This document shows positions 2,706 through 32,177 of a DNA stretch of 34,924 nucleotides, in pieces. How positions within the stretch are numbered: position 1 is the first letter of the stretch; each line of letters begins with the position of its first letter. The position numbers were made by a program, and so were the translations under genes. This DNA is from a virus (taxonomy: Duplodnaviria; Heunggongvirae; Uroviricota; Caudoviricetes), in the IMG/VR virus record IMGVR_UViG_2896589216_000002. One strand, 5' to 3'. Under the pieces are notes generated by a model. That model saw only the letters and a list, made by a program, of their open reading frames with translations. It made no database searches and had not been told where the DNA came from.

Positions 2706-2715
2706 GGTGCATTCC

Positions 2716-8490: not shown

Positions 8491-8787
8491 GGGCAAATCC
8501 ACTGATTAAACGGACAGGGATCATCCATTACCGGGGTGTCCATCCTGGACTCGCTGAAGCCCAGGTAATTAAAATCGTCCTTTACCGTCAGCCGGCGACT
8601 GACACCCACAATCTTTCCCCAGACATCAAGACCATACTTTTCTGCGGTATCGATGTTCCAGATAAGACCATAAAAATCACTGATAAAACTGTCGGGGGAA
8701 AGCGCTGCGTTAAAGCTGTTAATGAGGGCATTGAGTCGGGGGCTGGCAGCATACTGCGCAAGCACAGTGGCAGCCACATTCTGCACG

Positions 8788-10378: not shown

Positions 10379-10390
10379 GTTTTCTCCTGT

Positions 10391-11918: not shown

Positions 11919-12217
11919 ATCAGTTCCTCAGGTAACAGCCAGTAGAGCCGGTACCGGGATCCGAGCCCCCGCCAGTCAGGGTCACTATTCCCCTCCGTGT
12001 CGGTAAAAAACAGATCCCCCTGAAACGGCAGGTATCCGTACCGGACAATCCGGTTATTATTCAGACACAGCACGCCATACAGGCACGGTTCACCATTAAC
12101 AATGATATCGATATACATCCCCGTAGTACGCTGATTCAGGCGAATGGTGCAGACCTGAGCGCCCAGTGTCACCGTAAACTGCTGGGCTTTAACGGGAGAT
12201 AAAACAATTTCCAGCAT
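11915..12217 (-). CDS. phage tail protein, 100 aa
   Basis: Translationally coupled within tail operon. Confidence 0.35.
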
Positions 12218-12927
12218 CAGGTGATCCCCCTGTTCGTGGCGCTTCGTCTGTCAGCGTCTGACGGTTGTGTCTCCGACGCCGTAACTGGCTGCGTTTTAAC
12301 CGATGCGGCCCCTTTTGCTTTATCGTTGTCCGTGGGAGACGACTTATCCGTACTTCCCACTGACACCTCTCCTGTATTCATTACGGTCTGAAATACCGCA
12401 GTAACCGTCAGTAAGGTCGGACCATTATTACTTCGCATTCGGTAGTCATATTTCACAAGGTCGCAGGATGTCCATGTCTTGTCCGGCGTCTCAATATCGT
12501 AGAGTCCTGCCGTGGTACGCATCCTTTCAAGCGTTTCCAGCACATTCGTCCGCGAGGTGGTGGAAAAATTTGTCAGGTTCGGGACGGATCCGGAAAAGGC
12601 CGTCCACCCCTCTACAGTGAAAGTCACATGCAGTTCCGGCGATCTCTGGATTTTATTAAAGGTGGTATAAGCCCCCTGCTCCACGGGGACGGTGGAAACA
12701 GAAGCCTCCGCGCCCACCTCAACGACAACAAAAGAATCCGGGGAGAAAGGTTTGCCACCCTTCTGATGGGCACCTGCCGGATCATTCCGTGCGTAATAAA
12801 TACCGAATGACGGTGCCAGTACACTATTAATGAGTCCCAGGACACAGCCGCCACGAACTGCACTCAGTACGTTACTTTCACTGAGCGAAAAGTTATTCAG
12901 GGAAATATTATCGAAAGAAAAACTCAT
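12217..12927 (-). CDS. phage tail protein, 236 aa, directly downstream of tape measure
   Basis: Operon position; overlapping stop/start. Confidence 0.4.
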
Positions 12928-14944
12928 CCTGTTACCCCGCTGGAATAAACCGACACAAGCGCCGAATTCGTGATACGCCGACGTGCGTCATCGGTAATAC
13001 CCTTCACATTGTCCGACGTTGTGGTGACATTCAGTGTCCCGATATGCGTGGTTTCCGTTACGGTGGACTGCGATACAGGCGCAGGATGGAGCGACCGTAT
13101 GGCCATTGCCGCACCCGGATAAGGCAGGTTCGCCAGCACCCGCGGAATATAGTTGCGGGTCTCCTCCGGAGCAGCAGCCAGTCCCTTACGCTGAACATTT
13201 CCCTCTCCACAGTTATATGCCGCCAGAGCCTTAGCCAGATCGCCATGAAAAAAACGTATCAGGCCACCAAGTTTTCTCGCGGCGGCATCAGCGGCTTTTT
13301 CGGGATCAAAGGCATCGTTCCCCCTCAGACCAAATTCACTGGCCGTCTTCGGCATGAACTGAAACAGTCCCATCGCACCAGCAGGTGAGACGGCAAACTG
13401 ATTACCACGGGATTCGGTGATCGCAACGCTGCGCAGCAGTCCGGGCGGCAGGTTATATTTTTCCTCCAGTTGAGACAGTTTCGGTTGCAGCCAGCCTAAC
13501 AGGGCTTCCCCGGTCTTCGTCGGTCGCTGGCGGTTTTGCATGGCATTACCGAGTTTTTCCTGCGTCGCACGCATACCCTGTAGCCAGGATTCACCGAAGG
13601 CTGCTTCCCTCCCGGTTGCCTGAGAAGCCTGAGTATCCAGCATGCCCTGCTGCCATACTGTGGGTGATTGTGCCCGGGTGATGTTGCCAGGCTTTTCTCC
13701 GGCATCCAGTTTTGTCTGATACGTCTCCATCTCTTTCTTATTGAAAAAGAAAGTCCCGTCTGAAGCCCAGAAAAAACCATGTGAATCCAGCCAGTCCTTA
13801 TTTTCCCTGCCAACAATGGATGTCAGTAATCCGTCAACAACCGGGTAAAGCGCCGTTATCGCAAAAAGAAGGCCTCCGGGGCCACTGAGGGCTTTTGTCA
13901 GCCCCCGCACCCATGACGCCACTTTCAGCCCGATCAGCGTAATAATGACATTCTGCCAGCCCCCCAGTTCTCCGGCAGCCTTATTCGCTAGGGAGGCCAC
14001 TGACTCAACGTCATTCAGAAATGTGGTGATAAACCTGTTCACTTCCTCCGGATGTTGCTGCATCCAGTCACCGAGTGTCTCCAGCCAGTGGCTGAGCTTC
14101 AGCGCGTACGGCATCAACGCGGTGCTAATCGTCATCCCGATGCCGGACCAGGTCTGATCGAGCTCAACAAGCTCTTTTCGTAGCTTACGGGCCAGCGCTG
14201 TACGCCCCGGCGTAACCTGCGAACGGGAAGTAAATTCGTCCACATCTTTCAGCGCATGACCGGAGCCAAGAAACTGCTGTCCGGCATAACTGAAGCCCAG
14301 CGCGTTGCCGTAGGCAGTTTGTTCGGACTTTGTCAGTCGCGGAAAAATAACCGCCAGCTTGCGCATGATGGCTTCAGTGCTGTCAGTATTTAAATCAACA
14401 CTAATGCCCGCCCTGGCTGCAACCTGAAACAAATCCTGTAACACAGGATCAAAGGACCTTCCGGCTCTGAAGGCCGCTTTTGCATTTGCAAGCCGGGAAA
14501 ATGCCCCAGACATTTCCCCTTCATCAACATTATTTGCCCGCGCAGCCCGTAACCATCCGTCCAGATTTCTGGCCTTCATGCCAAAAGCATCGGATTCCAC
14601 GGACAGACGGTTCAGATCACGGGCAAAACCTGTTACCAGGTTCTTCAGCCCCCCAGCGTCAGACTGACACCCGCAAGAGCCAGAATCTCGCTACGGATTC
14701 CTGAAAAAAAACGGGACGCCCGTTTCCCGGCATCTTCCATTCGACGGGCCGTTTTATCAGCATCTTTTCCGGTTTTTTCCAGTGATTCACTGGTTTTCTT
14801 CTGTCCCTGACTGAATGTGTCAGCGACACCTTCCATCACCGTCGTGAGCCGGTTAAGGGCAGCATGTACTGCCTGTTCCCCGGCAGTAAAGTCCCTGTCA
14901 TCAATCCCGAGGGACAGAACAAGCTCATCAAGTACCTGCGCCAT
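12924..14944 (-). CDS. tail tape measure protein with C-terminal lytic transglycosylase (SLT) domain; N-terminal 99 aa and main 558 aa separated by a frameshift in a C6 tract
   Basis: SLT motif (ITESRGNQFAVSPAGAMGLFQFMP...AYNCGEGNV); adding one G to the run at 14649-14654 fuses the frames as ...SLTLGGLKNLVTGFARDLNRLSVESDAF... Confidence 0.7.
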
Positions 14945-15180
14945 TTCTGTTCTCCTGTATCACCTGTTCGTTATGGGCATCCACATGAATTATTTCCAGC
15001 AGATCCCATAAGTCCTGCACACCAAGGACAGAATCCAGTTCAGCTTTTGAAGCCTTACCGGAGGAGATAACGGTCGCAATGGTACGGGGAACATTAACGT
15101 AATCCACCACCCCGAACGGTCTGTCGGGGTCGAGATAACGCGGGGGATATCTAGCTGACGACGGTAGCGAAAAAATCCAC
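14928..15180 (-). CDS. candidate frameshift extension of tail chaperone (+1 frame relative to 15151-15555)
   Basis: Protein-like +1 frame (...PRYLDPDRPFGVVDYVNVPRTIATVISSGKASKAELDSVLGVQDLWDLLEIIHVD...) opens at the T6C run and ends overlapping the tape measure start. Confidence 0.4.
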
Positions 15181-15555
15181 ATGCAGCTTAAAGACCTCCG
15201 CACGCAGATTAAGACGGGTAATGATTTCTTCAATATCCTCTTCAACAAGCGGTCTCCGGATGCTGCGTTTTTTCGGATCGGGAACAAACTGCACACAGTC
15301 CATCATTTCATCCATCAACGGACGCGCCTCATCAGGCGGAATTTTCGATAATGCTTTCAGCCCTTCAAGGGCAAGCGCAGCCATCCCCAGACTACGAACA
15401 TCATCCGGTAACTCCACGCCACCACGCCCCATTGCCATAATGGCACGCATCGCCCACCATTCCGCCTGTGAGGCAGACATTTCGGTAAGATGAAATACCT
15501 TGCCCTTATCCCGTCCCTGACCTTCAATAGTGATAAATTTCTCTTTACGGGCCAT
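15151..15555 (-). CDS. tail assembly chaperone, 134 aa
   Basis: Directly upstream of tape measure; ends at slippery run GAT TTT TTC. Confidence 0.5.
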   Translation of the reverse strand: MARKEKFITIEGQGRDKGKVFHLTEMSASQAEWWAMRAIMAMGRGGVELPDDVRSLGMAALALEGLKALSKIPPDEARPLMDEMMDCVQFVPDPKKRSIRRPLVEEDIEEIITRLNLRAEVFKLHVDFFATVVS

Positions 15556-15893
15556 CAGTTAAAAACCTCCGGAGTAATGGTTTCCCACTCAATAACCGCC
15601 TGCCCTGGCTGCAACGTACGAGCTGCATCAGGCAGCGCTTTCCATTGTTTGAGTACGCCATTCACGCAGGTATATTTACGGCCAATCGCCGGAAGCAGGA
15701 CGACAGCGTTACAACGGAATACAGCCCGACTGGCCCGGATGTGGTTGACCAGGTATCAAAAATATCCCGGCTGGGGGAATCCGGCATGATATGAAACGTC
15801 TGGATAATGTTGCTGTACACAAATCCCGCGGACAGTTTGGTAATGCTGCCAACTTACTGATTTAGTGTATGATGGTGATTTTAAGGTGCTTGC

Positions 15894-16169
15894 GTGGCTT
15901 CCATTTCCATCAGATGTCCTTCCTGCTCCGCTACTGAAGGCGTGGTGCGTAACGGCAAAAGCACTGCCGGACATCAGCGCTATCTCTGCTCTCATTGCCG
16001 TAAAACATGGCAACTACAGTTCACTTACACCGCCTCTCAGCCCGGTACGCACCAGAAAATCATTGATATGGCCATGAATGGCGTCGGATGTCGCGCCAGT
16101 GCACGCATTATGGGCGTTGACCTCAACACGGTTTTCCGTCACTTAAAAAACTCAGGCCGCAGTCGGTAA
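15894..16169 (+). CDS. insA: IS1 InsA
   Basis: 91-aa InsA. Confidence 0.9.
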
Positions 16170-16195
16170 CCTCGCGCATACAACCGGGCAGTGAT

Positions 16196-16591
16196 GTGAT
16201 TGTCTGCGCTGAAATGGACGAACAGTGGGGCTACGTCGGTGCTAAATCACGTCAGCGCTGGCTGTTTTACGCGTATGACAGGATACGGAGGACGGTTGTG
16301 GCGCACGTCTTCGGTGAACGCACTCTGGCCACACTGGAGCGTCTTCTGAGCCTGCTGTCGGCCTTTGAGGTCGTGGTATGGATGACGGATGGCTGGCCGC
16401 TGTATGAATCACGCCTGAAGGGAAAGCTGCACGTTATCAGCAAGCGTTACACTCAGCGCATTGAGCGACATAATCTGAATCTGAGACAACATCTGGCAAG
16501 GCTGGGACGGAAGTCACTGTCGTTCTCAAAATCGGTGGAGCTGCATGACAAGGTCATCGGGCATTATCTGAACATAAAACACTATCAGTAA
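16196..16591 (+). CDS. insB: IS1 InsB
   Basis: InsB frame. Confidence 0.9.
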
Positions 16592-17955
16592 GTTGGAGTC
16601 ATTACCGACAGTTTACCGTCAATACCGCGGGCAGTTTCCGCCAGTACCAGTGGATCGGTGCCATAAACGTTATCTGTTGCAAATCCCTGAAGTCGTACGC
16701 CGGAGGGATACAGATTATTCACTGTCAGCGTGATAATGGCATCCGCCGCAGTGATGGTGTTGTTGTTACCCGACATTTACTGGACCTCCGTGGATGCAAT
16801 AACAAGTTTCTGGATACTACCGCCGTCACAGTACCAGAGCGTACAGGACGGACTGCTACGGGTTGCCCGCAAAGAGGGAAGCATATCGCCGATATACAGG
16901 TAATAGCCGGTGGCAAACAACGTTGAAGAAACATCTGCCTCCACAACATTGTTAATCTGTTTCTTCTGCGCCTCCGTCAGTGTCACCCCTTCACGGATCC
17001 CTCCCAGCGTTTGTACTGCTGGATAACGTCACTCATTGACGCTGCAACCAGCGCCCGCCCTTCATTGTTGTAGGGGACCGTCTGGTTTGACTTGAATAAT
17101 GCGATCACCGCCCCTGCAAACTGGCATTCAGCCAGATTTGCCCGCAGAAACTGTCCAGCCATTTAAAATCACCGGTAATAGTGCCATCCGCCCAGTAATC
17201 TTCCACCACACTGTTTTCCGCATATTTTCCGTAGAAATTGTAACCTGCGGCGATCAGCGCATCATAATCGCTGCCACTGGTAACATCAGCGGCCAGCCCC
17301 TCATACTCGCGGAACTTGAATGATACACGCCCCTCTGGTCGGATAAAATCAAGGCACGCTGCATACCCCAGTACCGCTGCAGCCCGGTTACCATCAGTCG
17401 CGAAAACAGGTACAACAGAGCTGTAGTTATTGACAGCAATTATCTGGTAAGCGATGTGTTCAGTACTGCCTTTTACTCTGGCGTTGCCGCTGGTTGTCCA
17501 TGCCACATAAAAGTAACGCTTGCCCTGCCCGTTTGCCCATGCAGAAAACGCCAGGTGTTGCTCGTCAGTGACCTCAGATACCGTGGAAAAACCCGCCCAT
17601 TGCTGGGAAGCGGCCTTAATGGCTGCCATTGTGTCAGGGACATCAGATACAGGCGCGCCCCGGGATATCACCGCACCGGTGTTACTGGTCATCTTCAGGA
17701 GTTCTGCTGCCGATCCACTGCCGAACGTTATCGTGGTACTCCCGGGTTTCGCCCCGGCGACAGTAATGACAAAAGCATTCTGTGTGGTATCGAATACCAC
17801 TGTAGCCACTGCTGCGGTCAGCGCTGTCTGTAGTGCCGTTGCAGCAGCGGCGAAGCTGGCGACACCGTTAAAATTCACTTCAATGCTGACGCTTTTCCCG
17901 TTAATACTCAGCATCAGCGTAAGCGTGCAGCAAGAACCGTATTGACGGGGATGTG

Positions 17956-19493
17956 TTATTCAGTCGGCAGTGCTACGCGCCAGGGGAGCAGTTCGCCGAC
18001 CCGGTTTATCGGCCAGTCGGCTATGACGTCAAGTACATAGCGGAGGTAGCTTTCTGGCTCCACTCCGTTCAGTTTGCACGTCCCGATCAGGCTGTACAGC
18101 AGCGCTCCCCGCTCTCCTCCATGATCCGAACCGAAGAACAGGTAGTTTTTGCGGCCCAGACTGACCATCCGCAACGCATTTTCAGCGATGTTATTGTCCG
18201 CCTCAGCCCAGCCATCATCTGCATAGTACGTCAGCGCCGGCCACTGGTTCAGGGCGTATGCGAACGCTTTCGCCAGTTCTGAGTGTCGCGACAGGGTTTT
18301 CATCTTTTCACGCAGCCAGCTTTCCAGGGATTTCATCAGCGGTTTCGTTTTCAACTGACGTTCGGCAAGGCGCTGCTCCGCCGTCATTCCCCTTATCTCT
18401 GCCTCGATGGCGTACAGTTCGCCGATCCGTTTCAGCGCTTCCTCCGTCAGGGCTGACGGGGTGCGAACGTGCACATCGTGGATTTTACGGCGGGCGTGAG
18501 CCCAACAGGCGGCTTCCGTTATCCGGCCATCCCGGTACAGCTCGTTGAACCCGGCGTATGCATCCGCCTGCAGTACACCACTGAACCACGCAAGATGGGT
18601 CTGCGGATGGATGCCTTTTCTGTCCGGGCTGTAAGCGAACCACACCGCCGGCGCCAGCGTTGACCCGGCGTTACGGTCGTCACGAACGTAGGTCCATAAC
18701 CGCCCGGTCTTCGTTTTCTTATTGCCTGGCAACAGCACCGGGACAGGCGTGTCATCGCATGGAGCTTACCGTCAGTCAGCACATAGTCCTGAAGCGCTTC
18801 TTCCAGCGGTGACAGTAGCCGGCAGCATGCATCCACCCAGCCCGACAGCAGTGAACGACTCAGCTCCACGCCCTGGCGGCCGTACATTTCAGACTGGCGG
18901 TACAGCGGGGTGTGCTCTGCATACTTTGAGATCAGCACGCGGGCCAGCAGCCCCGGTCCTGCGATACCCCGCTCGATGGGCCGTGAAGGCGCGGGGGCCT
19001 GCACGATGGCATTGCACTGAGTACAGGCATGCTTTTCACGTACAGTCCGGATAACCCGGAAGACGCTGCGCATCAACTCCAGCTGTTCGGCGGCATCCTC
19101 ACCCGGATAGCTCAGTGAGCCTCCACATTCCGGGCAGCATGACGCTGCCGGCAGCAGCCGTTTTTCATCGCGGGGGAGTGATTCGGGGAACGGTTTGCGG
19201 GTGCGGGTTTGACGCAGCGGGCGCTGCACGGCCGGGTCGTCAACCCGACCGGTAAGGGTATCACTTTCTTTCTGAAGTGCCTTCAGGTCAGCTTCCATCT
19301 GTGCGATACGACGGGAGACTTTTTCGGAGCGGCTGCCGAAGTTCATCCGGCGCAGCTTATCCAGCTGTGCCTGCAGATGGTCTATTTCGCGTTCACGCTC
19401 GTTCAGCTTTTCCAGCAGGGCACGGTTCAGCGCCTCCTGTTCGGCAAGGAGACGTTTCAGTGCATTGATATCGTCAGGAAGTGAGCTGCTCAT
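17956..19493 (-). pseudogene. tnpC: IS66 tnpC with 1-nt deletion (copy 2)
   Basis: gtcatcgcatgg near 18755-18760 versus gtcatcagcatgg in copy 3; ORF splits into 324 + 260 aa. Confidence 0.85.
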
Positions 19494-19541
19494 ACCGGGT
19501 ATATTACCAGGCTCATTCAGCGTCGACCAGGATAAAGAGGC

Positions 19542-19889
19542 TTACAACATAGTCAGGGACGTAAGCAGTCTTTTAGGCTGCCGCCAGTCGATACCTTCAA
19601 GGAGCATCGCCAGCTGTGCCGGTGTGAGGAACACTTTGCCATCCCGGGCTGACGGCCAGGCGAAGCGGCCGCGCTCCAGCCGTTTGGTCAGCAGACACAG
19701 TCCATCGCCGGTAGACCAGAGGAGCTTTACCTGACTGCCATTACGCCCACGGAAGATAAAAACGTGACCTGACATCGGATCGTCTTTCAGCGTCGTCTGC
19801 ACCTTTGCCGCCAGGCCGTTGAAGCCATTTCTCATATCGGTGATACCGGCAACCAGCCAAATTTTGGTCCCGGAAGGTAACGGGATCAT
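19542..19889 (-). CDS. tnpB: IS66 TnpB (copy 2)
   Basis: Identical to copies 1 and 3. Confidence 0.85.
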   Translation of the reverse strand: MIPLPSGTKIWLVAGITDMRNGFNGLAAKVQTTLKDDPMSGHVFIFRGRNGSQVKLLWSTGDGLCLLTKRLERGRFAWPSARDGKVFLTPAQLAMLLEGIDWRQPKRLLTSLTML

Positions 19890-20287
19890 CGCTTCAGTTC
19901 CTGTATCAGCAGAGTCAGGAGCTTTTCGCTGACATTGCCATTAAAGCGGAGCGTCCCGTGCCGGAACGTTACCTCACAGCTGATACTGAGGGTTTCCGGA
20001 TCCTCTGCGAGCGATTCTGGCTGTTCGGCAGCTGCATCGAGAGTCACAGGAAGTAGCTGGGGGCTCTCTGAAGAAGGTAATAGCAGCTTTCCCTCGCGCC
20101 ATTGTTGTCGCCATTTGAACAACAGATTGGCGTTAATGCCATTTTCAAGAGCAAGTTTTGAGATGGATATCCCGGGTTCACAGGAGGCAGCAACGAGCTG
20201 CTGTTTAAATTCGGGAGGATAATTAGGGCAGCCTTTTCGCCTGCCGGGATTCACATTTTTCTGCATATCTGACACTTTGGTTCCCAC
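19886..20287 (-). CDS. tnpA: IS66 TnpA (copy 2)
   Basis: 133-aa full-length. Confidence 0.85.
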   Translation of the reverse strand: MGTKVSDMQKNVNPGRRKGCPNYPPEFKQQLVAASCEPGISISKLALENGINANLLFKWRQQWREGKLLLPSSESPQLLPVTLDAAAEQPESLAEDPETLSISCEVTFRHGTLRFNGNVSEKLLTLLIQELKR

Positions 20288-20687
20288 TACTTATTTGGTG
20301 GACACCACTTTGTCTAATTCGTCAGATTCTGACCAGACGGTTCAGGCTGTACGCTTACGCATCAGCGTGCCGGAAAGTTTTTGTAGCTGTTCAACAGTCG
20401 CGCCCTTAAACGAACCGCTACGTAACCAGGCCGCCGATGGGGCAGGACTGAAACGGGAAAACAACAATTGCCCCGGCGTCCTGGTGGCATTTTTGAAGCC
20501 CTGGAAATAAAGCTGAGCGCGTGCGTACTCATCGGATAATGCACCAAAATACGCGGCCACATCATCCGGAGAGGAAAACGGAACCACAGTGCCGACCGGA
20601 AGTAACGGATTACTGGTCAACAGCAGGCCGTTAAGATCGACGGCATTACCCGCCACAGCCAGCACACCGGGATTTATCTGTACATCT

Positions 20688-21233
20688 TTACTGAGTGGAA
20701 TTGGCATTATCAGCCTCCGTTGTCCGGGTGATCACGTTGTCAAAAAACATCAGGGAAGTTGTGACCACAGGGTTAATCTGCATCTGAATATCAAGCGTCC
20801 AGCGCGGTTCATACTGTTGCTGACCGTTGGGGAATGTGGTGTTAAAGGGCTCTGAGCAATACAGCGGGGAAATCAGCCCACCGCCCTGCCGGAAAAGCCG
20901 TACGGAAAATTCAGACCGGAAAAGCGTTGCCAGCACCTGAGCGTTATCTGCCGCGTGAGGGCCGTAGAAATCAAGCTGGCAACGCCATTTTGTGGTACGG
21001 GTGATATGCTGAGAGCCCTCACCAGCCTGCGCTGGCGCAGAATATGCCACTACCGCAGTGGATAATCCGGTAACATCAATGCCCGTCATGGTGATGAAAT
21101 TCCCCTGAGGCATCGGGACCTGGTTCTGCTGCGTTCGTTCAATCCCGGCATCAGAAAAAAGCCCCCGGTGATAATCACCGAGGGCCTGATAAAGAGCGCT
21201 TTCCGTAACGGAGAGGGTCACACCTGAAGGCAT
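20688..21233 (-). CDS. phage virion protein immediately upstream of sheath, 181 aa
   Basis: Tight operon; position of tail terminator/completion proteins. Confidence 0.4.
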   Translation of the reverse strand: MPSGVTLSVTESALYQALGDYHRGLFSDAGIERTQQNQVPMPQGNFITMTGIDVTGLSTAVVAYSAPAQAGEGSQHITRTTKWRCQLDFYGPHAADNAQVLATLFRSEFSVRLFRQGGGLISPLYCSEPFNTTFPNGQQQYEPRWTLDIQMQINPVVTTSLMFFDNVITRTTEADNANSTQ

Positions 21234-21583
21234 ACAATAACCCTCGTCCAGTCAGGCCAGATTTCCAGTACCTCAATCACCAGCCACGTTTCATCGCCAA
21301 TAACAAATTTATCGCCTCCCTGTTGCCGGGCACGGTTAAGCCCGCACCAGTTACCATCGGTATACAATGTGGCGAAAACTCCCTGCTGGTTAAGATTATC
21401 AAGATGACGTAAATCAGCCTGGGTGACAGCCTGCTTTTGCCCCCTGACGGAAACCGGATCTTCATACTCAGGTACGCGGGAATAATCTGCCTGCTGTGTA
21501 CTCCCGCGGGAACGATAAACCAGCGCGTCTGTAAAGGGATTTACCCGACGTACTGCGCCGGAAACAATACCGTGAAAGTTCAT
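21218..21583 (-). CDS. phage head-tail joining protein, 121 aa
   Basis: Overlapping coupled ORF in structural operon. Confidence 0.4.
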   Translation of the reverse strand: MNFHGIVSGAVRRVNPFTDALVYRSRGSTQQADYSRVPEYEDPVSVRGQKQAVTQADLRHLDNLNQQGVFATLYTDGNWCGLNRARQQGGDKFVIGDETWLVIEVLEIWPDWTRVIVCLQV

Positions 21584-21834
21584 TTTTTGCCCCCGTCTAC
21601 AGAATAATCAACGCTGTCCATCATATGTCCGGTTTCAATAAGCGGGTTGTTAAAACCCTTTTGCCGGGCAGTGGATGCAGCGTTGGACGGACTTTCCCAG
21701 TCGCGAACAGACATCTGCAACTGCCCTTTGATATGTTCTCCCATACACACCAGAGCGGTCGCAGTATCAAAATCATTCGCCCGTAATAAGGTCGCCATTT
21801 TTTCGCCCCATTCGGGACTTTTATGTTCGATCAT
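21580..21834 (-). CDS. phage structural protein, 84 aa
   Basis: ATGA coupling on both sides. Confidence 0.35.
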   Translation of the reverse strand: MIEHKSPEWGEKMATLLRANDFDTATALVCMGEHIKGQLQMSVRDWESPSNAASTARQKGFNNPLIETGHMMDSVDYSVDGGKK

Positions 21835-22163
21835 CTTACGGAAGAACGGACGGGGGGAATGGTGACCGTGTGCTCAGGAATAACCACATCCTGAACAAAA
21901 TTCCCTTTACCGGCTTTGACAAAGCGGTGCCCGGTTTCTCCCGTTTTTTCGTTATAGCGAAAGTGGAGCGTCTGCTCACGGGCGGGTATGACCGCTCTTC
22001 CACCAAACTCCTGAACTGCGGCAATATAAGCCACTGACGTACCGTCAGGGTAAGTTGCTCCCTCAAGAAAACCCACTTTGAGTTTTTTACCCAATGAAAG
22101 GTTCGCGGCAACCTGTTTCAGCTTCTGCCGGAACTGTTTGCCACCTGTGACTTTATTTACCAT
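21831..22163 (-). CDS. phage head-tail connector/completion protein (HK97 gp10-like size), 110 aa
   Basis: Operon position. Confidence 0.4.
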
Positions 22164-22612
22164 CGACGCCCCCTCCCGTATCCCCGGTAATAATGCCCCG
22201 GATATCGCGAAGGTGCCCCCCCGGAATGATACTGCATTGAGCGGTATGGCGCTGTCGCCTGCCAGTAGTCAGCACCCCAGGGGGTCTGGAGATACCACCA
22301 CGACGCATCATTACTGCCGCTATTATCCACCGATACCGATACAGAACCTTCCGACGCACTGGTGATACGCCCCACCAGACCAGCCTGCCCGTCTCTCCCG
22401 TTTCCCAGCCCCCGCAATGCGCACAGATGCGCAACCAGCAGGAACAGAAGCTGTTCCCGCTCCTTCAGGTCGGTAACCGGACTGTCGTCCGTGTTATCCA
22501 GGTACAACGCGGTCGCCCGGTTAAACACCGCCGTCAGTAGCTCCGGTGTCACCGTGGAAAACTCCGGGTACAGACTGACAAACATCCGACAGTCAAACGT
22601 CACCGTACCCAT
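22157..22612 (-). CDS. phage head-tail adaptor-like protein, 151 aa
   Basis: Operon position; Gly/Arg/Tyr-rich C-terminus. Confidence 0.4.
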
Positions 22613-22617
22613 AGCGT

Positions 22618-23685
<1,068 letters not shown>

Positions 23686-23694
23686 ATGGCGACA

Positions 23695-23910
23695 TTATTC
23701 ACCTCTCGCAGCCTTACGCTTATCTTCTCTTATTTTGAAATACAGATTCGTCAGATAAGTCAGAAGCCCCAGAAGCAGACTTCCCAGCACACCAATCGCA
23801 GCCCACTGTGATGGACTGACCTGATCCAACCACTGCAAAAACCAGTAGCCGGCACTGCCGGCGGAGGTGCCGTAGGCAATGCCCGTTGAAATTTTGTCCA
23901 TGGATTTCAT
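23695..23910 (-). CDS. phage-21-type pinholin (S21 family), 71 aa, dual-start motif MKSMDK
   Basis: Near-identical to the S21 holin as I recall it ([30 protein letters not shown]...); second Met at 23901. Confidence 0.8.
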
Positions 23911-24202
23911 AGCCTCACCTCCGCAAATAACGGATGGCGTAGTTTTACACTGAGAAATGAAAGGGATTTGAAAAGAAAAAAACGCAAAAGCGGGCGAAAC
24001 GATATATACAGTAAGGAAAGCACTCTATCCAACAAACCACCCACAGTTAATCGGAATAAAAGCAGAGTGCTTATGAATGATCGCACGCCCGAAGGTTAGT
24101 ATTTCTGCACAGCAATTTTGCAAAAAAAGGCGATCATTCATAACTTAAACGTCTTTCAGTCACTCCGGGATTTCCCATCATCGCAGACTGAAAGACTCTG
24201 AC

Positions 24203-24277
<75 letters not shown>

Positions 24278-24280
24278 ATA

Positions 24281-24357
<77 letters not shown>

Positions 24358-24359
24358 CT

Positions 24360-24436
24360 GGCCCACCACCGAGGACTCGAACCTCGCACCGTCAACTTAG
24401 AAGGTTGATGCTCTATCCGGATGAGCTAGTGGTGGT
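24360..24436 (-). tRNA. tRNA-Arg (anticodon UCU), phage argN/argO-like
   Basis: Anticodon loop CTTCTAA, T-loop TTCGAGT, CCA; unusual C1:G72 acceptor pair. Confidence 0.8.
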
Positions 24437-24437
24437 T

Positions 24438-24514
24438 GGTGGCCCTTGCTGGACTTGAACCAGCGACCTGGCGATTATGAGTCGCTCGCTCTGACCAACT
24501 GAGCTAAAGGGCCG
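24438..24514 (-). tRNA. tRNA with CAU anticodon, ileX/ileZ-like (probable tRNA-Ile2; Met not excluded)
   Basis: GGCCCTT acceptor, anticodon loop CTCATAA, T-arm GCTGGTTCAAGTCCAGC resembling E. coli ileX. Confidence 0.7.
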
Positions 24515-24593
24515 GAGGCAGAATAATAACCATATGTCATCACATCTGCAAACTCATCTGACCACCAGCACGTTTAACGTCCTGTGCCGTTTT

Positions 24594-25894
<1,301 letters not shown>

Positions 25895-26232
25895 CTGATA
25901 AAAGCGCCCTGTACTGGTTAGCAATAGCAAATTTACTACCAGCTGCTCTGATTTCAAGAAAGCTGTACACCTCCCTTATGCCTATATTTTTAACCGGAAC
26001 ACCACCAAAGTATTCACTTATGATTTTCAACCTCTGGTTGTGTCTTTTCATGGTGTTTGTGCTTAATTGTCTACGCTCTATTTCATTTCTGAAATTTAAT
26101 ATCAGCTCGCAGAATAATGTTACGCTATTACCTTTTATTCTATCCAGTAAGCTTATATGTTGCGTGGATAATAATTCCATATTTGCCGCAATAGCCTCAT
26201 TAACTGCAATTCTTTTGTCTCTTCCGATTCCA
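25895..26232 (-). pseudogene. AT-rich integrase-like fragment (N-terminal/SAM-like region), cut by IS1 upstream and IS911 downstream
   Basis: Frame ...RDKRIAVNEAIAANMELLSTQHISLLDRIK...LSTNTMKRHNQRLKIISEYFGGVPVKNIGIREVYSFLE...; low-GC codons. Confidence 0.35.
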
Positions 26233-26359
26233 GGTGATGACTCCAACTTACTGATAGTGTTTTATGTTCAGATAATGCCCGATGACCTTGTCATGCAGCT
26301 CCACCGATTTTGAGAACGACAGTGACTTCCGTCCCAGCCTTGCCAGATGTTGTCTCAGA
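26233..26359 (-). mobile_element. IS1 fragment (127 bp, IRR end plus insB 3' end), truncated by IS66 copy 3
   Basis: Identical to the 4462-4588 end of IS1 copy 1 up to ...tgtctcaga. Confidence 0.9.
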
Positions 26360-26396
26360 GTAAGCGTGCAGCAAGAACCGTATTGACGGGGATGTG

Positions 26397-27935
26397 TTAT
26401 TCAGTCGGCAGTGCTACGCGCCAGGGGAGCAGTTCGCCGACCCGGTTTATCGGCCAGTCGGCTATGACGTCAAGTACATAGCGGAGGTAGCTTTCTGGCT
26501 CCACTCCGTTCAGTTTGCACGTCCCGATCAGGCTGTACAGCAGCGCTCCCCGCTCTCCTCCATGATCCGAACCGAAGAACAGGTAGTTTTTGCGGCCCAG
26601 ACTGACCATCCGCAACGCATTTTCAGCGATGTTATTGTCCGCCTCAGCCCAGCCATCATCTGCATAGTACGTCAGCGCCGGCCACTGGTTCAGGGCGTAT
26701 GCGAACGCTTTCGCCAGTTCTGAGTGTCGCGACAGGGTTTTCATCTTTTCACGCAGCCAGCTTTCCAGGGATTTCAGCAGCGGTTTCGTTTTCAACTGAC
26801 GTTCGGCAAGGCGCTGCTCCGCCGTCATTCCCCTTATCTCTGCCTCGATGGCGTACAGTTCGCCGATCCGTTTCAGCGCTTCCTCCGTCAGGGCTGACGG
26901 GGTGCGAACGTGCACATCGTGGATTTTACGGCGGGCGTGAGCCCAACAGGCGGCTTCCGTTATCCGGCCATCCCGGTACAGCTCGTTGAACCCGGCGTAT
27001 GCATCCGCCTGCAGTACACCACTGAACCCCGCAAGATGGGTCTGCGGATGGATGCCTTTTCTGTCCGGGCTGTAAGCGAACCACACCGCCGGCGCCAGCG
27101 TTGACCCGGCGTTACGGTCGTCACGAACGTAGGTCCATAACCGCCCGGTCTTCGTTTTCTTATTGCCTGGCAACAGCACCGGGACAGGCGTGTCATCAGC
27201 ATGGAGCTTACCGTCAGTCAGCACATAGTCCTGAAGCGCTTCTTCCAGCGGTGACAGTAGCCGGCAGCATGCATCCACCCAGCCCGACAGCAGTGAACGA
27301 CTCAGCTCCACGCCCTGGCGGCCGTACATTTCAGACTGGCGGTACAGCGGGGTGTGCTCTGCATACTTTGAGATCAGCACGCGGGCCAGCAGCCCCGGTC
27401 CTGCGATACCCCGCTCGATGGGCCGTGAAGGCGCGGGGGCCTGCACGATGGCATCGCACTGAGTACAGGCATGCTTTTCACGTACAGTCCGGATAACCCG
27501 GAAGACGCTGCGCATCAACTCCAGCTGTTCGGCGGCATCCTCACCCGGATAGCTCAGTGAGCCTCCACATTCCGGGCAGCATGACGCTGCCGGCAGCAGC
27601 CGTTTTTCATCGCGGGGGAGTGATTCGGGGAACGGTTTGCGGGTGCGGGTTTGACGCAGCGGGCGCTGCACGGCCGGGTCGTCAACCCGACCGGTAAGGG
27701 TATCACTTTCTTTCTGAAGTGCCTTCAGGTCAGCTTCCATCTGTGCGATACGACGGGAGACTTTTTCGGAGCGGCTGCCGAAGTTCATCCGGCGCAGCTT
27801 ATCCAGCTGTGCCTGCAGATGGTCTATTTCGCGTTCACGCTCGTTCAGCTTTTCCAGCAGGGCACGGTTCAGCGCCTCCTGTTCGGCAAGGAGACGTTTC
27901 AGTGCATTGATATCGTCAGGAAGTGAGCTGCTCAT
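26397..27935 (-). CDS. tnpC: IS66 transposase TnpC (copy 3, intact)
   Basis: 512 aa, identical to copy 1. Confidence 0.9.
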
Positions 27936-27983
27936 ACCGGGTATATTACCAGGCTCATTCAGCGTCGACCAGGATAAAGAGGC

Positions 27984-28331
27984 TTACAACATAGTCAGGG
28001 ACGTAAGCAGTCTTTTAGGCTGCCGCCAGTCGATACCTTCAAGGAGCATCGCCAGCTGTGCCGGTGTGAGGAACACTTTGCCATCCCGGGCTGACGGCCA
28101 GGCGAAGCGGCCGCGCTCCAGCCGTTTGGTCAGCAGACACAGTCCATCGCCGGTAGACCAGAGGAGCTTTACCTGACTGCCATTACGCCCACGGAAGATA
28201 AAAACGTGACCTGACATCGGATCGTCTTTCAGCGTCGTCTGCACCTTTGCCGCCAGGCCGTTGAAGCCATTTCTCATATCGGTGATACCGGCAACCAGCC
28301 AAATTTTGGTCCCGGAAGGTAACGGGATCAT
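27984..28331 (-). CDS. tnpB: IS66 TnpB (copy 3)
   Basis: Identical. Confidence 0.85.
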   Translation of the reverse strand: MIPLPSGTKIWLVAGITDMRNGFNGLAAKVQTTLKDDPMSGHVFIFRGRNGSQVKLLWSTGDGLCLLTKRLERGRFAWPSARDGKVFLTPAQLAMLLEGIDWRQPKRLLTSLTML

Positions 28332-28729
28332 CGCTTCAGTTCCTGTATCAGCAGAGTCAGGAGCTTTTCGCTGACATTGCCATTAAAGCGGAGCGTCCCG
28401 TGCCGGAACGTTACCTCACAGCTGATACTGAGGGTTTCCGGATCCTCTGCGAGCGATTCTGGCTGTTCGGCAGCTGCATCGAGAGTCACAGGAAGTAGCT
28501 GGGGGCTCTCTGAAGAAGGTAATAGCAGCTTTCCCTCGCGCCATTGTTGTCGCCATTTGAACAACAGATTGGCGTTAATGCCATTTTCAAGAGCAAGTTT
28601 TGAGATGGATATCCCGGGTTCACAGGAGGCAGCAACGAGCTGCTGTTTAAATTCGGGAGGATAATTAGGGCAGCCTTTTCGCCTGCCGGGATTCACATTT
28701 TTCTGCATATCTGACACTTTGGTTCCCAC
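28328..28729 (-). CDS. tnpA: IS66 TnpA (copy 3)
   Basis: Identical. Confidence 0.85.
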   Translation of the reverse strand: MGTKVSDMQKNVNPGRRKGCPNYPPEFKQQLVAASCEPGISISKLALENGINANLLFKWRQQWREGKLLLPSSESPQLLPVTLDAAAEQPESLAEDPETLSISCEVTFRHGTLRFNGNVSEKLLTLLIQELKR

Positions 28730-28826
28730 TACTTATTTGGTGGACACCACTTTGTCTAATTCGTCAGATTCTGACCAGACGGTTCAGGCTGTACGCTTAC
28801 GTTTTTATAATCCGGCCATGACATTT

Positions 28827-29186
28827 TTACAACATTGTCAGTGCGTTAAGGCGGGATGTTTTTGGCTGACGCCAGTCCAGCTTATCGAGGAGCATTGCCA
28901 GTTGCGAGCGGGTAATGGATACCTTGCCGTCACGCACAGCAGGCCAGATAAACTGGCCTTCCTCCAGGCGTCTGGTGAACAGGCACAGACCATCAGCATC
29001 AGCCCACAGGATTTTAATCATGTCACCCCGTCGGCCACGGAAGATGAACAGGTGACCGGAGAAGGGATTATCATTCAGCACATGCTGTACCTGTTCACCC
29101 AGCCCGTTGAAAGACTTACGCATATCGGTTATCCCAGCAACGAGCCAGATGCGGGTGCCTGACGGGAGTGAGATCATCGTCCCCAC
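28827..29186 (-). CDS. tnpB: IS66-family TnpB (second element), 119 aa
   Basis: Clear paralogue of the 115-aa TnpB (...WLVAGITDMR...NGL...FIFRGRRG...). Confidence 0.8.
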   Translation of the reverse strand: MGTMISLPSGTRIWLVAGITDMRKSFNGLGEQVQHVLNDNPFSGHLFIFRGRRGDMIKILWADADGLCLFTRRLEEGQFIWPAVRDGKVSITRSQLAMLLDKLDWRQPKTSRLNALTML

Positions 29187-29593
29187 CCGGTCAGTTCACG
29201 GATCAACACTGTGAGCAGCTCTGGTGAAGGATTTTCCAGCGTCATGTTACCGTGACGGAACTCCACCTTGCAGGAGCTGGCACTAACTGTAGTCTGAGTA
29301 GATAAAGACGGAGTAAGAGCAGCCACCGGTTCTTTCGGCTCATCCGGCGTTATCTCCACAGGTAATAATTCAACGCCAGTGTCAGAAGAGGTTGTTACCG
29401 GAAGACGCCGCGATATGCGCCCTTCGTTCTGCCAGAGCCTGAGCCATTTGAACAGCAGGTTATCATTGATATCGTGTTCCCGGGCAATACGGGCAACAGA
29501 GGCTCCTGGTTGTGAAGCCAGTTTAACCATTTGAAGTTTAAACTCATTTGAAAATGATCTGCGGGGTTCTGCAGATAATGCTTTCTGTTCCAT
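29174..29593 (-). CDS. tnpA: IS66-family TnpA (second element), 139 aa
   Basis: HTH protein paralogous to tnpA. Confidence 0.75.
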   Translation of the reverse strand: MEQKALSAEPRRSFSNEFKLQMVKLASQPGASVARIAREHDINDNLLFKWLRLWQNEGRISRRLPVTTSSDTGVELLPVEITPDEPKEPVAALTPSLSTQTTVSASSCKVEFRHGNMTLENPSPELLTVLIRELTGWGR

Positions 29594-29679
29594 AACAGGT
29601 GTCCACTAGTTGAAAAGGTGGGCACCTACGTTACCAATACAGGCTTAATGGCTACATACGGCGGTCAGTTTACGCTTAC

Positions 29680-30017
29680 CAAAATACGCTGTTGCTTTTT
29701 TTAATATATATCGCTCAAGGCGAGCTTCATTTAACGCCTTACGCAGTTGCAGAATTTCAGATTCCAGTTCAGCCACCGTGCGGGAACCAGGAGTACCGAG
29801 CCCTTTTCTGGCGGCGGTAACCCATTGTCCTAAAGTGCCTTCAGGAAGGGATAATCGGGAAGCGCCTTCACTGATCGAAAGTTGATTTTCAAGAACCGTT
29901 CTGACAGCTTCGGCTTTGAACTCTTTAGAGTAACGTTGGTTTTTTCTGCTCATTATTAGCTCCTTCTGATGCCATTCTATTTCAGGAAGGAGTGTCCGTT
30001 AAACTCAGGCTACCTCA
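29680..30017 (-). mobile_element. IS600 fragment (IRL + most of orfA), truncated by the IS66-family remnant
   Basis: OrfA MSRKNQRYSKEFKAEAVRTVLENQLSISEGASRL...; end tgaggtagcctgagtttaacggacactcc (complement, 29989-30017); A7G slippery run. Confidence 0.85.
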
Positions 30018-30076
30018 GCCTGAGGGCAGGTGTAAAACAATAATCAAGCATGGGGTTCATATCCATAGCTCCATTT

Positions 30077-30622
30077 TTATTTTAAGGAAAGCAACTGCTC
30101 TACGGTCATGTTTTTAATTGCGCCCCGGTTTACAAGAGTCCAGCCCTGTTTTTCCAGATAAAACCGGAAAGTCTCCAGGGTACAGACCAGTGCGCCATCA
30201 GGAACGGTTTCGGTGAATTCGACATTGCCGAATTTGTCGAAGTGAACAACCAGAGTGCGACCATCACCCGGAATCATCTTGTCAGCAGGTGGGGTGTTAT
30301 TCTGGCGCAGTTCGGCCTCCATGCGGTCGAACTCAGCAATGTAGGCTTCCTTGAATGTGGCGGCTTTTTTGCCCGTGAAGCCCATCACCAGGAAAACGAA
30401 GCCGTTTTTGGTGATTTGGTAGGCGTTATAAGAATTGCCGCGGTGTTCGAATTTAACCCGCGAAAAGTTGCTGGTTAAAAATAGTTCAGAACATTCGAGG
30501 GATTCTATTTTTTGAACAACATGGTGATGCTGCTTGCCAAAAAACTCAGCAATCGAAATAGAAGTAGTGACGGCGCGACCATTTTCGATGGTTACGTCAG
30601 GGTGAGAAAGGGTAGTAGCCAT
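30077..30622 (-). CDS. Rha-family phage regulatory protein, ~182 aa from ATG at 30622
   Basis: N-terminal Rha motif (VTTSISIAEFFGKQHHHVVQKIESL); RBS gagga 8 nt upstream; longer 274-aa ORF in track is probably an over-extension. Confidence 0.65.
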   Translation of the reverse strand: MATTLSHPDVTIENGRAVTTSISIAEFFGKQHHHVVQKIESLECSELFLTSNFSRVKFEHRGNSYNAYQITKNGFVFLVMGFTGKKAATFKEAYIAEFDRMEAELRQNNTPPADKMIPGDGRTLVVHFDKFGNVEFTETVPDGALVCTLETFRFYLEKQGWTLVNRGAIKNMTVEQLLSLK

Positions 30623-30788
30623 AATGACATCCTCAAGTGATAAGTTAATTAACTCACCAGCAGAGGTGCTAATCTCATGGGTGGTGAGACGCACAGGGTT
30701 AGCACTACCGGTCACTCGAGAACCCGGCCAGCCTTGCGGCTGCCCCGCACGCCTCACCATAATTTGAATGTGGCTGTGCATTACGCAT

Positions 30789-30814
30789 AAAAAAAACCGC
30801 TTCAGCGCGGTTAT
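30789..30814 (-). terminator. strong rho-independent terminator
   Basis: Minus-strand hairpin aaccgcgctgaagcggtt followed by T8. Confidence 0.7.
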
Positions 30815-30866
30815 GCGCTCGAGTAACTTTCGGGGTGCTAATCCCGGCGCCCGTTTTATGAGGTGC
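30789..30866 (-). ncRNA. candidate ~80-nt small RNA or leader transcript bounded by the promoter and terminator above
   Basis: No start codon inside; predicted RNA gcaccucauaaaacgggcgccgggauuagcaccccgaaaguuacucgagcgcauaaccgcgcugaagcgguuuuuuuu. Confidence 0.4.
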
Positions 30867-30872
30867 AGGTGC

Positions 30873-30901
30873 ATTATAATTCCACCCGTTCTGGTTTTCA
30901 A
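30873..30901 (-). promoter_or_regulatory. near-consensus sigma70 promoter (TTGAAA - 17 nt - TATAAT) reading toward lower coordinates
   Basis: Minus-strand ttgaaaaccagaacgggtggaattataat. Confidence 0.55.
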
Positions 30902-30939
30902 TAGCTACATTCAACATTTTCTCTTTCCTTTCATCACCG

Positions 30940-31085
30940 AAGTGAATTTTGTGATGCGGTGCCTAGTGCCTCCAGGTGACGTTAACCAGTTAACAATTAC
31001 AGTCGGCTTTCCCACCCAAACCAATAAGGACTAACATGACTTTTAACTGTGCCGCGTGCGCTTAGCCGCATTCACCGCATCACAA
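30940..31085. repeat. 22-bp perfect inverted repeat (aagtgaattttgtgatgcggtg) flanking a 102-bp spacer with central gttaaccagttaac palindrome
   Basis: Arms at 30940-30961 and 31064-31085. Confidence 0.8.
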
Positions 31086-31086
31086 A

Positions 31087-31150
31087 ATTCACTTTAAAAA
31101 GGGCGGACATCAGCCAGCAATTAAACCGATGCCGCCAACTGGTACTTCAC
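31087..31150 (-). ncRNA. DicF-like small RNA candidate
   Basis: Downstream of ydfA in a dicA-led operon; hairpin GGCGGCATC...GATGTCCGCC + T5; resembles the DicF core as I recall it (GUUUGGCGGUAUCAG...CUGCCGCCCUUUUU). Confidence 0.45.
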
Positions 31151-31338
31151 ACAGCAATGTCGTTATTTACAACCGGAAGCGCACTCCCACCATTTAAATT
31201 TCACAGACAAGACCGACTCTTTATGAATACCGGAAATGCGCCTTCGTGTTGTGCCCGGTTTTATTTCACCACCTCCGGGCTTTGGTGGCCTCGGCTATAC
31301 CTCTACAGCGAGAATATTGAATTAATCCAATAAATGGA

Positions 31339-31491
31339 TTAGCTGGTATTTTTGGCAAGCCAGCGACGTGCGCCAGCTTCGGTTTTAAACGTTTTGCTTT
31401 TGGTATACGTCATGGCGGTGAATGTGCCGTCCTGATTGGGAAACACGCCACACACTAGGGATTCGTTGTTGCCAAGATCGATAGTATCCAT
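31339..31491 (-). CDS. ydfA: YdfA-like protein (DUF1391), 51 aa from ATG at 31491
   Basis: MDTIDLGNNESLVCGVFPNQDGTFTAMTYTKSKTFK... closely matches Qin YdfA; RBS gagg upstream. Confidence 0.75.
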   Translation of the reverse strand: MDTIDLGNNESLVCGVFPNQDGTFTAMTYTKSKTFKTEAGARRWLAKNTS

Positions 31492-31693
31492 GCTGACCTC
31501 ATTTCCCCTTAACGCCGGGGTAGCGGAACTGTTTGCTGAGAACACCGTGCGGTGTCTTGATGAATGAAATTTAGAATAACCTAAGGTGTTGGGTTAAGAT
31601 TTTATGTAGAAAAACCTAAGTTTTTTTGATGTAAAAAACACAAGTGTTTGAAAGTTTGTGCTTTTTATTACAGGGTGTGGAGAAAAAAGGGGA

Positions 31694-32101
31694 TTATTTG
31701 TTTGCGCTTCTTTTGCGAGCTTTGAGTAGTTCTTCAAAAAGTTTGTTGAAATTTTCAACTCGAGCACGCATCTCTGACAACAGGGCCTTTTGCTCTGACT
31801 CAGGCAGTGCGTCGAACAGTTGAAGTAACTCTTTTTGATCTTCTGTCAGAATGGCTGGCTGATTATCCGGGATCGGTTCGCCTGGTTGTTTATCTTCATC
31901 CCCAAAAAGAAGCCAAGTCGGTGAGCACTGAAGCGCTTGGCTCAGTGCGAATAATCTTTTCCCCGCCGGCTGTGTTTCATCTCTTTCCCATTGAGAAATT
32001 GTTACGTGAGCCACTTTGACCAGCTTACCTAATGCGGCCTGAGACAGTTTTAATTTTTTACGCCTATGTAAGAGGCGAGCACCGAAGGTTTCGTTTTTCA
32101 T
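31694..32101 (-). CDS. dicA: DicA-like XRE-family HTH repressor, 135 aa
   Basis: Motifs LQCSPTWLLFGDEDKQP, LFDALPESEQ, EMRARVENFNKLFEELLKAR match DicA; divergent from a Cro-like gene. Confidence 0.8.
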   Translation of the reverse strand: MKNETFGARLLHRRKKLKLSQAALGKLVKVAHVTISQWERDETQPAGKRLFALSQALQCSPTWLLFGDEDKQPGEPIPDNQPAILTEDQKELLQLFDALPESEQKALLSEMRARVENFNKLFEELLKARKRSANK

Positions 32102-32177
32102 ATTAGGGAATTCTAATTTTTCTTGACTTAGGTTTCTCTACGAGCTAGTTTCCTTAGGAAAATCTAAGGAGCTCGAT
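32102..32177. promoter_or_regulatory. dicA-dicC divergent control region with repeated CTTAGG/CCTAAG motifs (candidate operators)
   Basis: ttaggga, gacttaggttt, ccttaggaaaatctaagga; same hexamer recurs downstream of dicA (31580-31630). Confidence 0.4.

Follow-up and report, generated by a model that had tools for sequence, protein, structure and literature searches.

Prophage decay driven by insertion sequences (IS) and inversions bounded by IS elements occur in Shigella genomes. IS911 transposes by copy-out and paste-in, with an excised circle as the intermediate, rather than replicatively via a cointegrate. Tyrosine integrases of the lambda type, such as lambda Int (PDB entries 1Z1B, 1Z1G and 5J0N) and the enzymes of the phages 434, HK97 and mEp332, consist of an arm-binding, a core-binding and a catalytic domain, with an overlapping xis gene upstream.

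Both the domain layout and the overlapping xis gene recur in the intact relative of the locus studied here, an integrase of Escherichia coli FDAARGOS_944 with a length of 373 aa as annotated, or 348 aa if counted from a lambda-like start. This protein aligns with lambda Int from end to end (residues 2–352, E = 1.2e-83), and the residues R212, K235, H308, R311, H333 and Y342 of lambda Int are all conserved. Three Pfam models score above their cut-offs, Arm-DNA-bind_1 (26–84), Phage_int_M (112–192) and Phage_integrase (218–364). The protein is 45% identical to the integrases of lambda, 434 and HK97. Its attachment site differs from lambda attB in being located at the start codon of the gene pgl.

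The prophage encoding this integrase (NZ_CP065613.1, ~4286.2–4329.4 kb) comprises ~43 kb, is essentially intact and is located between the genes ybhA and pgl. Its left part runs in the order ybhA, attL, int, xis, gam, recE, ydaE, rha, cI, cro and ydaT. These are followed by replication and nin genes, four tRNA genes, holin and lysozyme genes, terminase and head genes, and finally by contractile tail genes, tail fibres, ipaHb, attR and pgl. The ipaHb gene spans 41761..43587 of the prophage locus (L018). Both FDAARGOS_944 and the strain FDAARGOS_943 are filed as E. coli and could represent Shigella or strains of the EIEC type (enteroinvasive E. coli).

Here we investigated a DNA stretch of 34,924 nt recorded as viral (IMGVR_UViG_2896589216_000002; from here: the window), for which a preliminary description had drawn attention to an AT-rich, integrase-like segment at positions 25895..26232. 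We consider this segment, with a probability of about 0.9, to be a non-functional piece from the interior of a prophage gene for a lambda-type integrase, which resulted from the routine IS decay of a Shigella prophage and does not belong to any new system.

An internal integrase fragment between IS911 and IS1

The segment had been described as trapped between two insertion sequences, and this is what we observed. The inverted repeat of a full IS911 ends at position 25894 (...GTGCCACTTCA) and the inverted repeat of a 127-bp IS1 stub starts at position 26233 (GGTGATGACTCC...). The reported drop in GC over ~338 bp was likewise confirmed, with boundaries that are exact to the base: the 338-bp fragment has a GC content of 37.0%, compared to a mean of 52.7% for the window. 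When the entire stretch was divided into pieces of the same length, their GC content had a standard deviation of 4.7% and a minimum of 36.1%, and only 0.2% of them were as low in GC as the fragment, every one overlapping 25895..26232. The GC content is 43% for the intact homologue and 46% for its prophage, which argues that the low GC is a trait of the integrase gene itself.

On the minus strand, a reading frame is open over the entire segment 25895..26232. It corresponds to residues 61–172 of the annotated 373-aa integrase of FDAARGOS_944 (tblastn, E = 6.7e-69), with 112/112 identical amino acids and 337/338 identical nucleotides. Profile searches, the check that had been proposed for the integrase assignment, bore it out as well: the PHROG integrase family phrog_7244 matches the fragment with E = 8.4e-13, and lambda Int structures align with it at about residues 36–146 (E = 6e-8). 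In Pfam, the fragment alone reached 21.5 bits for Phage_int_SAM_4 and 19.5 bits for Arm-DNA-bind_1, both below the gathering cut-offs (22 bits for Arm-DNA-bind_1, a model for which the intact relative scores 72.7 bits). Because the SAM-like and arm models stay below threshold, the integrase call rests on the identity to the intact gene and on the PHROG and PDB matches, not on Pfam.

Encoded in the fragment are the final helix of the arm-binding domain, the linker and the greater part of the core-binding domain (lambda Int ~36–148). The preliminary description had compared it to the N-terminal or SAM-like part of a tyrosine integrase. The second half of this comparison was well founded, as the SAM-like core-binding domain is represented by an alignment to lambda Int that reaches residue 146, whereas the first half has to be revised, as the piece is internal. 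Residues 1–60, constituting the arm-binding beta-sheet, are absent, and of the N-terminal arm-DNA-binding domain (lambda residues 1–64) only the last ~24 residues are left (lambda 36–58). At the opposite end, the final ~20 residues of the core-binding domain, judged by the extent of Phage_int_M in the intact relative (112–192), lie beyond the IS911 break. A catalytic domain with the R-K-H-R-H-Y residues was detected by tblastn neither in the fragment nor anywhere in the window, and the same search found no other integrase piece in the window. Compared to the lambda system, the window retains only ~112 internal residues. With no native start, no arm-binding sheet and no catalytic domain, the fragment is expected to do nothing.

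The allele is rare, which sets it apart from the integrases of lambda, 434, HK97 and mEp332. Among 5426 complete E. coli genomes, only two gave a match, FDAARGOS_944 and FDAARGOS_943, and the integrase gene of the latter is interrupted by IS600. No match to the fragment was obtained in a plasmid collection (megablast) or in a phage collection (blastn), where relatives appear at the protein level only, with 45% identity. Copies of IS600 and IS1 were also noticed in the FDAARGOS_943 prophage.

The displaced catalytic half of the gene

The IS911 element next to the fragment (24647..25894, minus strand; from here: copy B) is complete. Its 1248 bp match the length of ~1250 bp expected for IS911, it possesses the inverted repeats TGAAGTGG... 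and the frames orfA and orfB, and its alignment with the IS911 annotated in phage Sf6 shows 98.7% identity over 1249 bp. Copy B borders on the integrase fragment with its IRL end and on the phage tRNA region with its IRR end. Direct reading of the junctions identified the trinucleotide CTG at 25895..25897 as one copy of the 3-bp target-site duplication that is characteristic of IS911. The second CTG copy adjoins the C-terminal piece of the integrase gene, outside the window.

This C-terminal piece was found in the sequence CP026832.1 (L013), named S. dysenteriae 14 ATCC 49346 (PMC10132075), to which the window is identical from position 15803 to 34924 (19122/19122 nt). Past the right end of the window, CP026832.1 continues with the remainder of an IS1 element and its 9-bp duplication CTCGGTGGC, after which come the terminal 21 bp of IS911 and the trinucleotide CAG. 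The reverse complement of integrase residues 173–373 follows, then attL and ybhA. The C-terminal piece begins 86 bp beyond the right end of the window, and attL lies ~0.8 kb beyond it. Residues 173–373 form an open frame in which all six catalytic residues are present.

In four genomes (L008, L009, L011 and L013), the C-terminal part of the integrase gene lies beside ybhA and modC, with an IS911 following it. With the intact-gene locus (L002) as coordinate reference for both pieces, the C-terminal piece corresponds in all four to 7300..8003 and the N-terminal piece to 8001..8338, giving an overlap of 3 bp (CTG). At the junctions, ...AAAAATGTCTG is joined to the IS911 IRR and the IS911 IRL to CTGATAAAAG. 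As the pieces overlap by exactly the 3 bp of the target-site duplication, it was one insertion of IS911, after codon 172, that split the gene. No exact match to the IS911-integrase junction was found in a collection of one genome per species, in which the source strain is not among the representatives.

These findings bear directly on the preliminary description, according to which IS activity may have deleted the catalytic domain together with the att site, leaving an N-terminal stub at a former island or prophage boundary. Two observations within the window are in line with such a course: no other piece of the integrase was found there by tblastn, and the true N-terminus and xis are gone. 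It is nevertheless very unlikely: residues 173–373 and attL persist by ybhA, starting 86 bp past the window end in a genome that is 100% identical, the shared CTG duplication proves that both halves come from the same gene, and the fragment is internal, not N-terminal. That description is supported in its notion of a former prophage boundary, since the fragment marks the left end of an ipaH-carrying prophage between ybhA and pgl. The search of the neighbourhood that it had recommended located the C-terminal part of the integrase; the tRNA attachment site that it anticipated was not there, the core being at the pgl start codon. Neither attL nor an excisionase gene adjoins the fragment, as xis was lost at the IS1 junction and attL is outside the window with the C-terminal piece.

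An inverted segment between two IS911 copies

A second IS911 (copy A; 32985..34211, plus strand) is inverted relative to copy B and is 98.6% identical to the Sf6 IS911 over 1228 bp. Copy A has its IRL end turned towards ydaT, and an IS1 insertion, which occupies 34212..34924 and runs off the window, separates the terminal 21 bp from the rest of the element. The IRR end of copy A abuts the integrase C-terminal piece in CP026832.1, a junction that was read in L013 and L008. Moreover, a partial IS911 (element positions 530–1248) is present at 22966..23685, where it separates the holin gene from the structural genes.

The IRL ends of copies A and B both face the segment extending from the N-terminal part of the integrase gene to ydaT, and their IRR ends are directed outward, towards the tRNA region and the C-terminal integrase part, respectively. 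Relative to the FDAARGOS_944 prophage, the integrase fragment and the early region of the window are in forward orientation, while the tRNA, holin and tail-fibre regions are reversed. By this comparison, which covered 20 kb of CP026832.1, the stretch that reaches from codon 172 of the integrase gene to a point shortly beyond ydaT has been turned around and is flanked by the two oppositely oriented IS911 copies. The reference for the inversion is a relative, not an ancestor.

On the C-terminal side of the fragment, IS911 inserted after integrase codon 172, thereby duplicating CTG. The DNA from codon 172 back via the immunity region to ydaT now lies inverted between the IS911 copies, probably through homologous recombination between the two. 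As a result, the fragment is situated beside the phage tRNA and holin genes, with the catalytic half and attL remaining by ybhA, ~9 kb off.

A simple history of two insertions plus one inversion was considered and found to be incomplete, because the second IS911 is not flanked by a matching duplication: its neighbouring 3 bp read, in window orientation, CTG towards ydaT and ATG towards the tRNA region. The partial IS911 at 23685 does not supply the partner duplication either. Missing at the second IS911 are ~5.6 kb containing replication, nin and antiterminator genes (L018 ~10.3–15.9 kb), and this loss may account for the unmatched duplication. Given that the second IS911 is without a matching duplication, at least one further IS911-associated deletion or exchange must have taken place, and the order of the events cannot be fixed.

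Alternatively, the IS911 on the ydaT side could have transposed into the integrase gene of the same DNA molecule, a single step that would generate the second copy together with the inversion and would not require recombination between copies already present. The end product would be the same, namely inverted copies and a CTG duplication split across the inverted segment. However, with the copy-out, paste-in mode of IS911, the duplication of the donor copy itself should have survived, which it has not, and the many other exchanges at IS copies in related genomes favour recombination. We therefore regard a one-step transposition as improbable and recombination between two IS911 copies as the preferred course. 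A literature search for an earlier account of this inversion gave nothing specific.

The IS1 junction on the N-terminal side

The IS1 stub next to the integrase fragment (26233..26359) is 99.2% identical to the annotated IS1 of FDAARGOS_943. Of an entire element, with 768 bp, a GGTGATG... inverted repeat and the genes insA and insB, the 127-bp end alone is left, which makes it a remnant and not an element. A complete 768-bp IS1 exists at this position in L015, exactly between ydaE (L002 ~12721) and integrase codon 61 (L002 8338). Missing at the IS1 junction in comparison to the intact relative are integrase residues 1–60, xis, the genes for a DUF1187 protein and an AAA ATPase, gam and recE (~4.4 kb). 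Such a loss would be explained by an IS1-mediated adjacent deletion, by which integrase residues 1–60, xis and the DNA up to ydaE were removed.

An IS66-family element landed in this IS1 later, trimming it to the 127 bp that are present in the window. The element is located at 26360..28800 (minus strand; ends approximate), terminates in GTAAGCG.../...CGCTTAC and encodes a 512-aa transposase with the Pfam domains DDE_Tnp_IS66, zf-IS66 and LZ_Tnp_IS66. In the lineage of the window, ydaE was replaced by further IS66 and IS600 debris. This consists of a second IS66-family remnant at 28802..29679 (minus strand), with a 139-aa orfA (Pfam HTH_Tnp_1) and a partial orfB (TnpB_IS66 in the gene calls of L008 and L013), and of a 338-bp IS600 fragment at 29680..30017, which shares 99.4% identity with the IS600 copies annotated in FDAARGOS_943.

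Altogether, one and the same IS66-family element occurs in three copies in the window, at 1..2350 (plus strand), 17914..20359 (minus strand) and 26360..28800 (minus strand). The tail-sheath gene is interrupted by the copy at 17914..20359, which leaves it in two parts (17105..17914 and 20342..20707). The transposase frame of this copy is broken as well, into ORFs of 324 and 260 aa.

The attachment site and the tRNA cluster

A core sequence, (TT[C/T])ATGAAGCAAA, is common to attB of E. coli K-12, to attL (L002, L013) and to attR (L007), and overlaps the start codon of pgl. This core of 10–13 bp is located at 3084..3096 in K-12 (L017), at 7312..7324 in L002 and at ~4347 in L007. At attR, the phage end provides pgl with a new upstream sequence (GAGGTGTGTTTATG), and the expression of pgl in lysogens may for this reason depend on phage DNA. 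In L007, an ipaH-type gene with LRR_TTSS and NEL domains is located next to pgl.

On the far side of IS911 copy B, ARAGORN predicted a cluster of tRNA genes at about 24202..24646 (minus strand), comprising Gly(tcc), Thr(tgt), Arg(tct) and a tRNA with the anticodon CAT. One could take the fragment for the integrase of a tRNA-targeting island and this Gly-Thr-Arg-Met cluster for its attachment site, as four tRNA genes are situated only 1.4 kb from it, across IS911. Yet the cluster is 98.9% identical to the internal cluster of the intact prophage, where it lies between the antiterminator region and the holin gene (Q–S region), and free phages carry it too, e.g. PhiR47_1 in the same arrangement. 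In addition, the 3′ ends of the tRNA genes point away from the integrase fragment, and the intact integrase gene sits at ybhA/pgl with its core over the pgl start codon. We therefore assign virtually no probability to this reading. The tRNA cluster is cargo of the phage late region and not an attachment site.

Membership in the class of tRNA-targeting integrases, which are recognised by an integrase gene beside a tRNA 3′ end and by an att repeat of that end, was accordingly rejected, with the tRNAs being cargo that faces away and the core being at pgl.

Two tRNA assignments differ between sources. The tRNA with the CAT anticodon (24437..24513) was called Met by ARAGORN, while RefSeq lists a tRNA-Ile for the copy in the 98.9% identical region (L018 16054..16130), and a neighbouring tRNA of PhiR47_1 is annotated as Lys where the window has Arg(tct) (L004 3151..3304). 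Both the Met/Ile and the Lys/Arg differences could reflect annotation or the anticodons.

A hybrid open reading frame

Across the two IS junctions, a hybrid reading frame of 147 aa is open on the minus strand (25803..26246). It starts with TTG in the IS1 repeat, continues through the core-binding domain and ends in a tail from the IS911 end. Its exact product is encoded on at least 23 contigs, 13 of which are longer than 1 Mb. From this conservation and the open frame, one might suppose that the hybrid is expressed as a catalytically dead protein which binds the att core and interferes with related lambda-type integrases. If so, IS elements would by accident have created an anti-recombinase, retained in several Shigella lineages, that might impede integration or excision. 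But the DNA flanking the hybrid frame is equally well conserved, with 99.5–100% identity across genomes, so the conservation points to recent shared descent and not to selection. Furthermore, a scan for a promoter or terminator remained at chance level (promoters: 2 found vs. 1.3 expected), the start codon is TTG, and the product would have an incomplete core-binding domain and no arm-binding sheet. An expressed DNA-binding protein is thus extremely unlikely, and a dead gene piece remains our reading of the fragment.

The remainder of the window belongs to the same prophage

To the right of the IS600 fragment, an early and immunity region with the orientation of the integrase fragment extends over 30020..32813 and is colinear with the intact prophage. 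It encodes Rha (30077..30901, minus strand; Pfam Phage_pRha), a cI-like repressor (31694..32101, minus strand; HTH_3), Cro (~32178..32405, plus strand) and YdaT (32390..32812, plus strand; YdaT_toxin). Identity to the intact prophage is 89.5% over 30020..31288, containing rha, and 98.1% over 31360..32813, containing a DUF1391 gene and the genes for the cI-like repressor, Cro and YdaT.

To the left of the fragment, beyond the tRNA cluster, a class II holin gene (23686..23901, minus strand) is 98.6% identical to that of the intact prophage, and the tail fibres at 2350..6057 match the FDAARGOS_944 prophage in reverse orientation, as do the tRNA and holin genes. Myovirus proteins of the neck, sheath, tape measure and baseplate are encoded in what remains of the left half.

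Overall, the prophage of the window and that of FDAARGOS_944 have attL and the host site in common, and their identities amount to 99.7% for the integrase, 98% for the immunity region, 98.9% for the tRNA cluster, 98.6% for the holin gene and 91–98% for the tail-fibre end. In contrast to the window, the FDAARGOS_944 prophage is colinear and nearly free of insertion sequences, and no blastn match connects the head and tail modules of the two. As the structural module of the window (~6.1–23.4 kb) is without a blastn match, the two prophages are mosaic cousins and that of FDAARGOS_944 is not the exact progenitor. The myovirus head, neck, sheath and baseplate region at ~6100..23400 is unmatched and both its flanks match at 91–99%, which suggests a module swap between relatives.

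Insertion sequences are frequent throughout the window, with at least 12 copies or fragments in 35 kb (IS1, IS3-family, IS911, IS66-family and IS600). Besides the elements described above, there are IS1 copies at 4460..5229 and 15839..16606, in addition to that at 34212..34924, one of the three being inside the tail-fibre genes, and another IS3-family element at 7217..8490 (ORFs of 136 and 301 aa) in the baseplate/tail-fibre region. The tail protein of the tape-measure/lytic transglycosylase type is distributed over two ORFs on the minus strand (12924..14600 and 14645..14944), both matching phrog_2013, and this split suggests a frameshift or a small lesion independent of insertion sequences.

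Taken together, the window is the IS-riddled remainder of a lambdoid/myovirus mosaic prophage with an ipaH effector gene, integrated between ybhA and pgl. With its integrase gene split, xis deleted and the ~5.6-kb region of replication, nin and antiterminator genes missing, this prophage is unable to excise and therefore immobilised.

Related genomes

The integrase C-terminal piece is by ybhA also in S. flexneri SFBU1023 and in ECMA0423 (CP182556.1 and CP178302.1, the latter filed as ‘E. coli’), with 98% aa identity. There, however, it is IS1 and not IS911 that abuts the integrase gene, 27 bp further in (L002 7973; L005/L006 7229..8573). The IS911-integrase junction of the window is absent from the collection of one genome per species, and the prophage decayed independently in the SFBU1023 lineage.

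Across ten genomes (L007–L016), the block consisting of the integrase fragment, IS911, the tRNA genes and the holin gene is constant and its other neighbour varies. The neighbours observed were the prophage early region, ipaH-pgl-ybhD, kdp-RHS, nadA-pnuC with a cation-efflux gene, and kdsA-ldr. The IS66 and IS1 copies at the edge of the block act as rearrangement points, which is useful to know for the assembly and comparison of Shigella genomes.

Conclusions

The segment at 25895..26232 is a lambda-type integrase pseudogene fragment in a typical IS-scrambled Shigella prophage, without departure from known biology. As in other cases of IS decay in Shigella, IS1, IS911, IS600 and IS66 elements split genes, DNA was lost beside IS copies and an inversion is seen between inverted copies. 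The locus differs from these cases in nothing of kind but provides a worked example in which a 3-bp duplication re-joins a split gene on paper.

Beyond annotation, the finding has little weight. It illustrates that a stub which seems orphaned when only a short window is viewed may be one displaced gene half, with its counterpart just past the edge, and that the 3-bp IS911 duplication is a reliable tag by which split halves can be re-joined. It also identifies the window as part of a decayed prophage that carries ipaH and occupies the pgl site of S. dysenteriae serotype 14. This prophage is locked in place, the usual route by which Shigella fixes phage-borne effectors.
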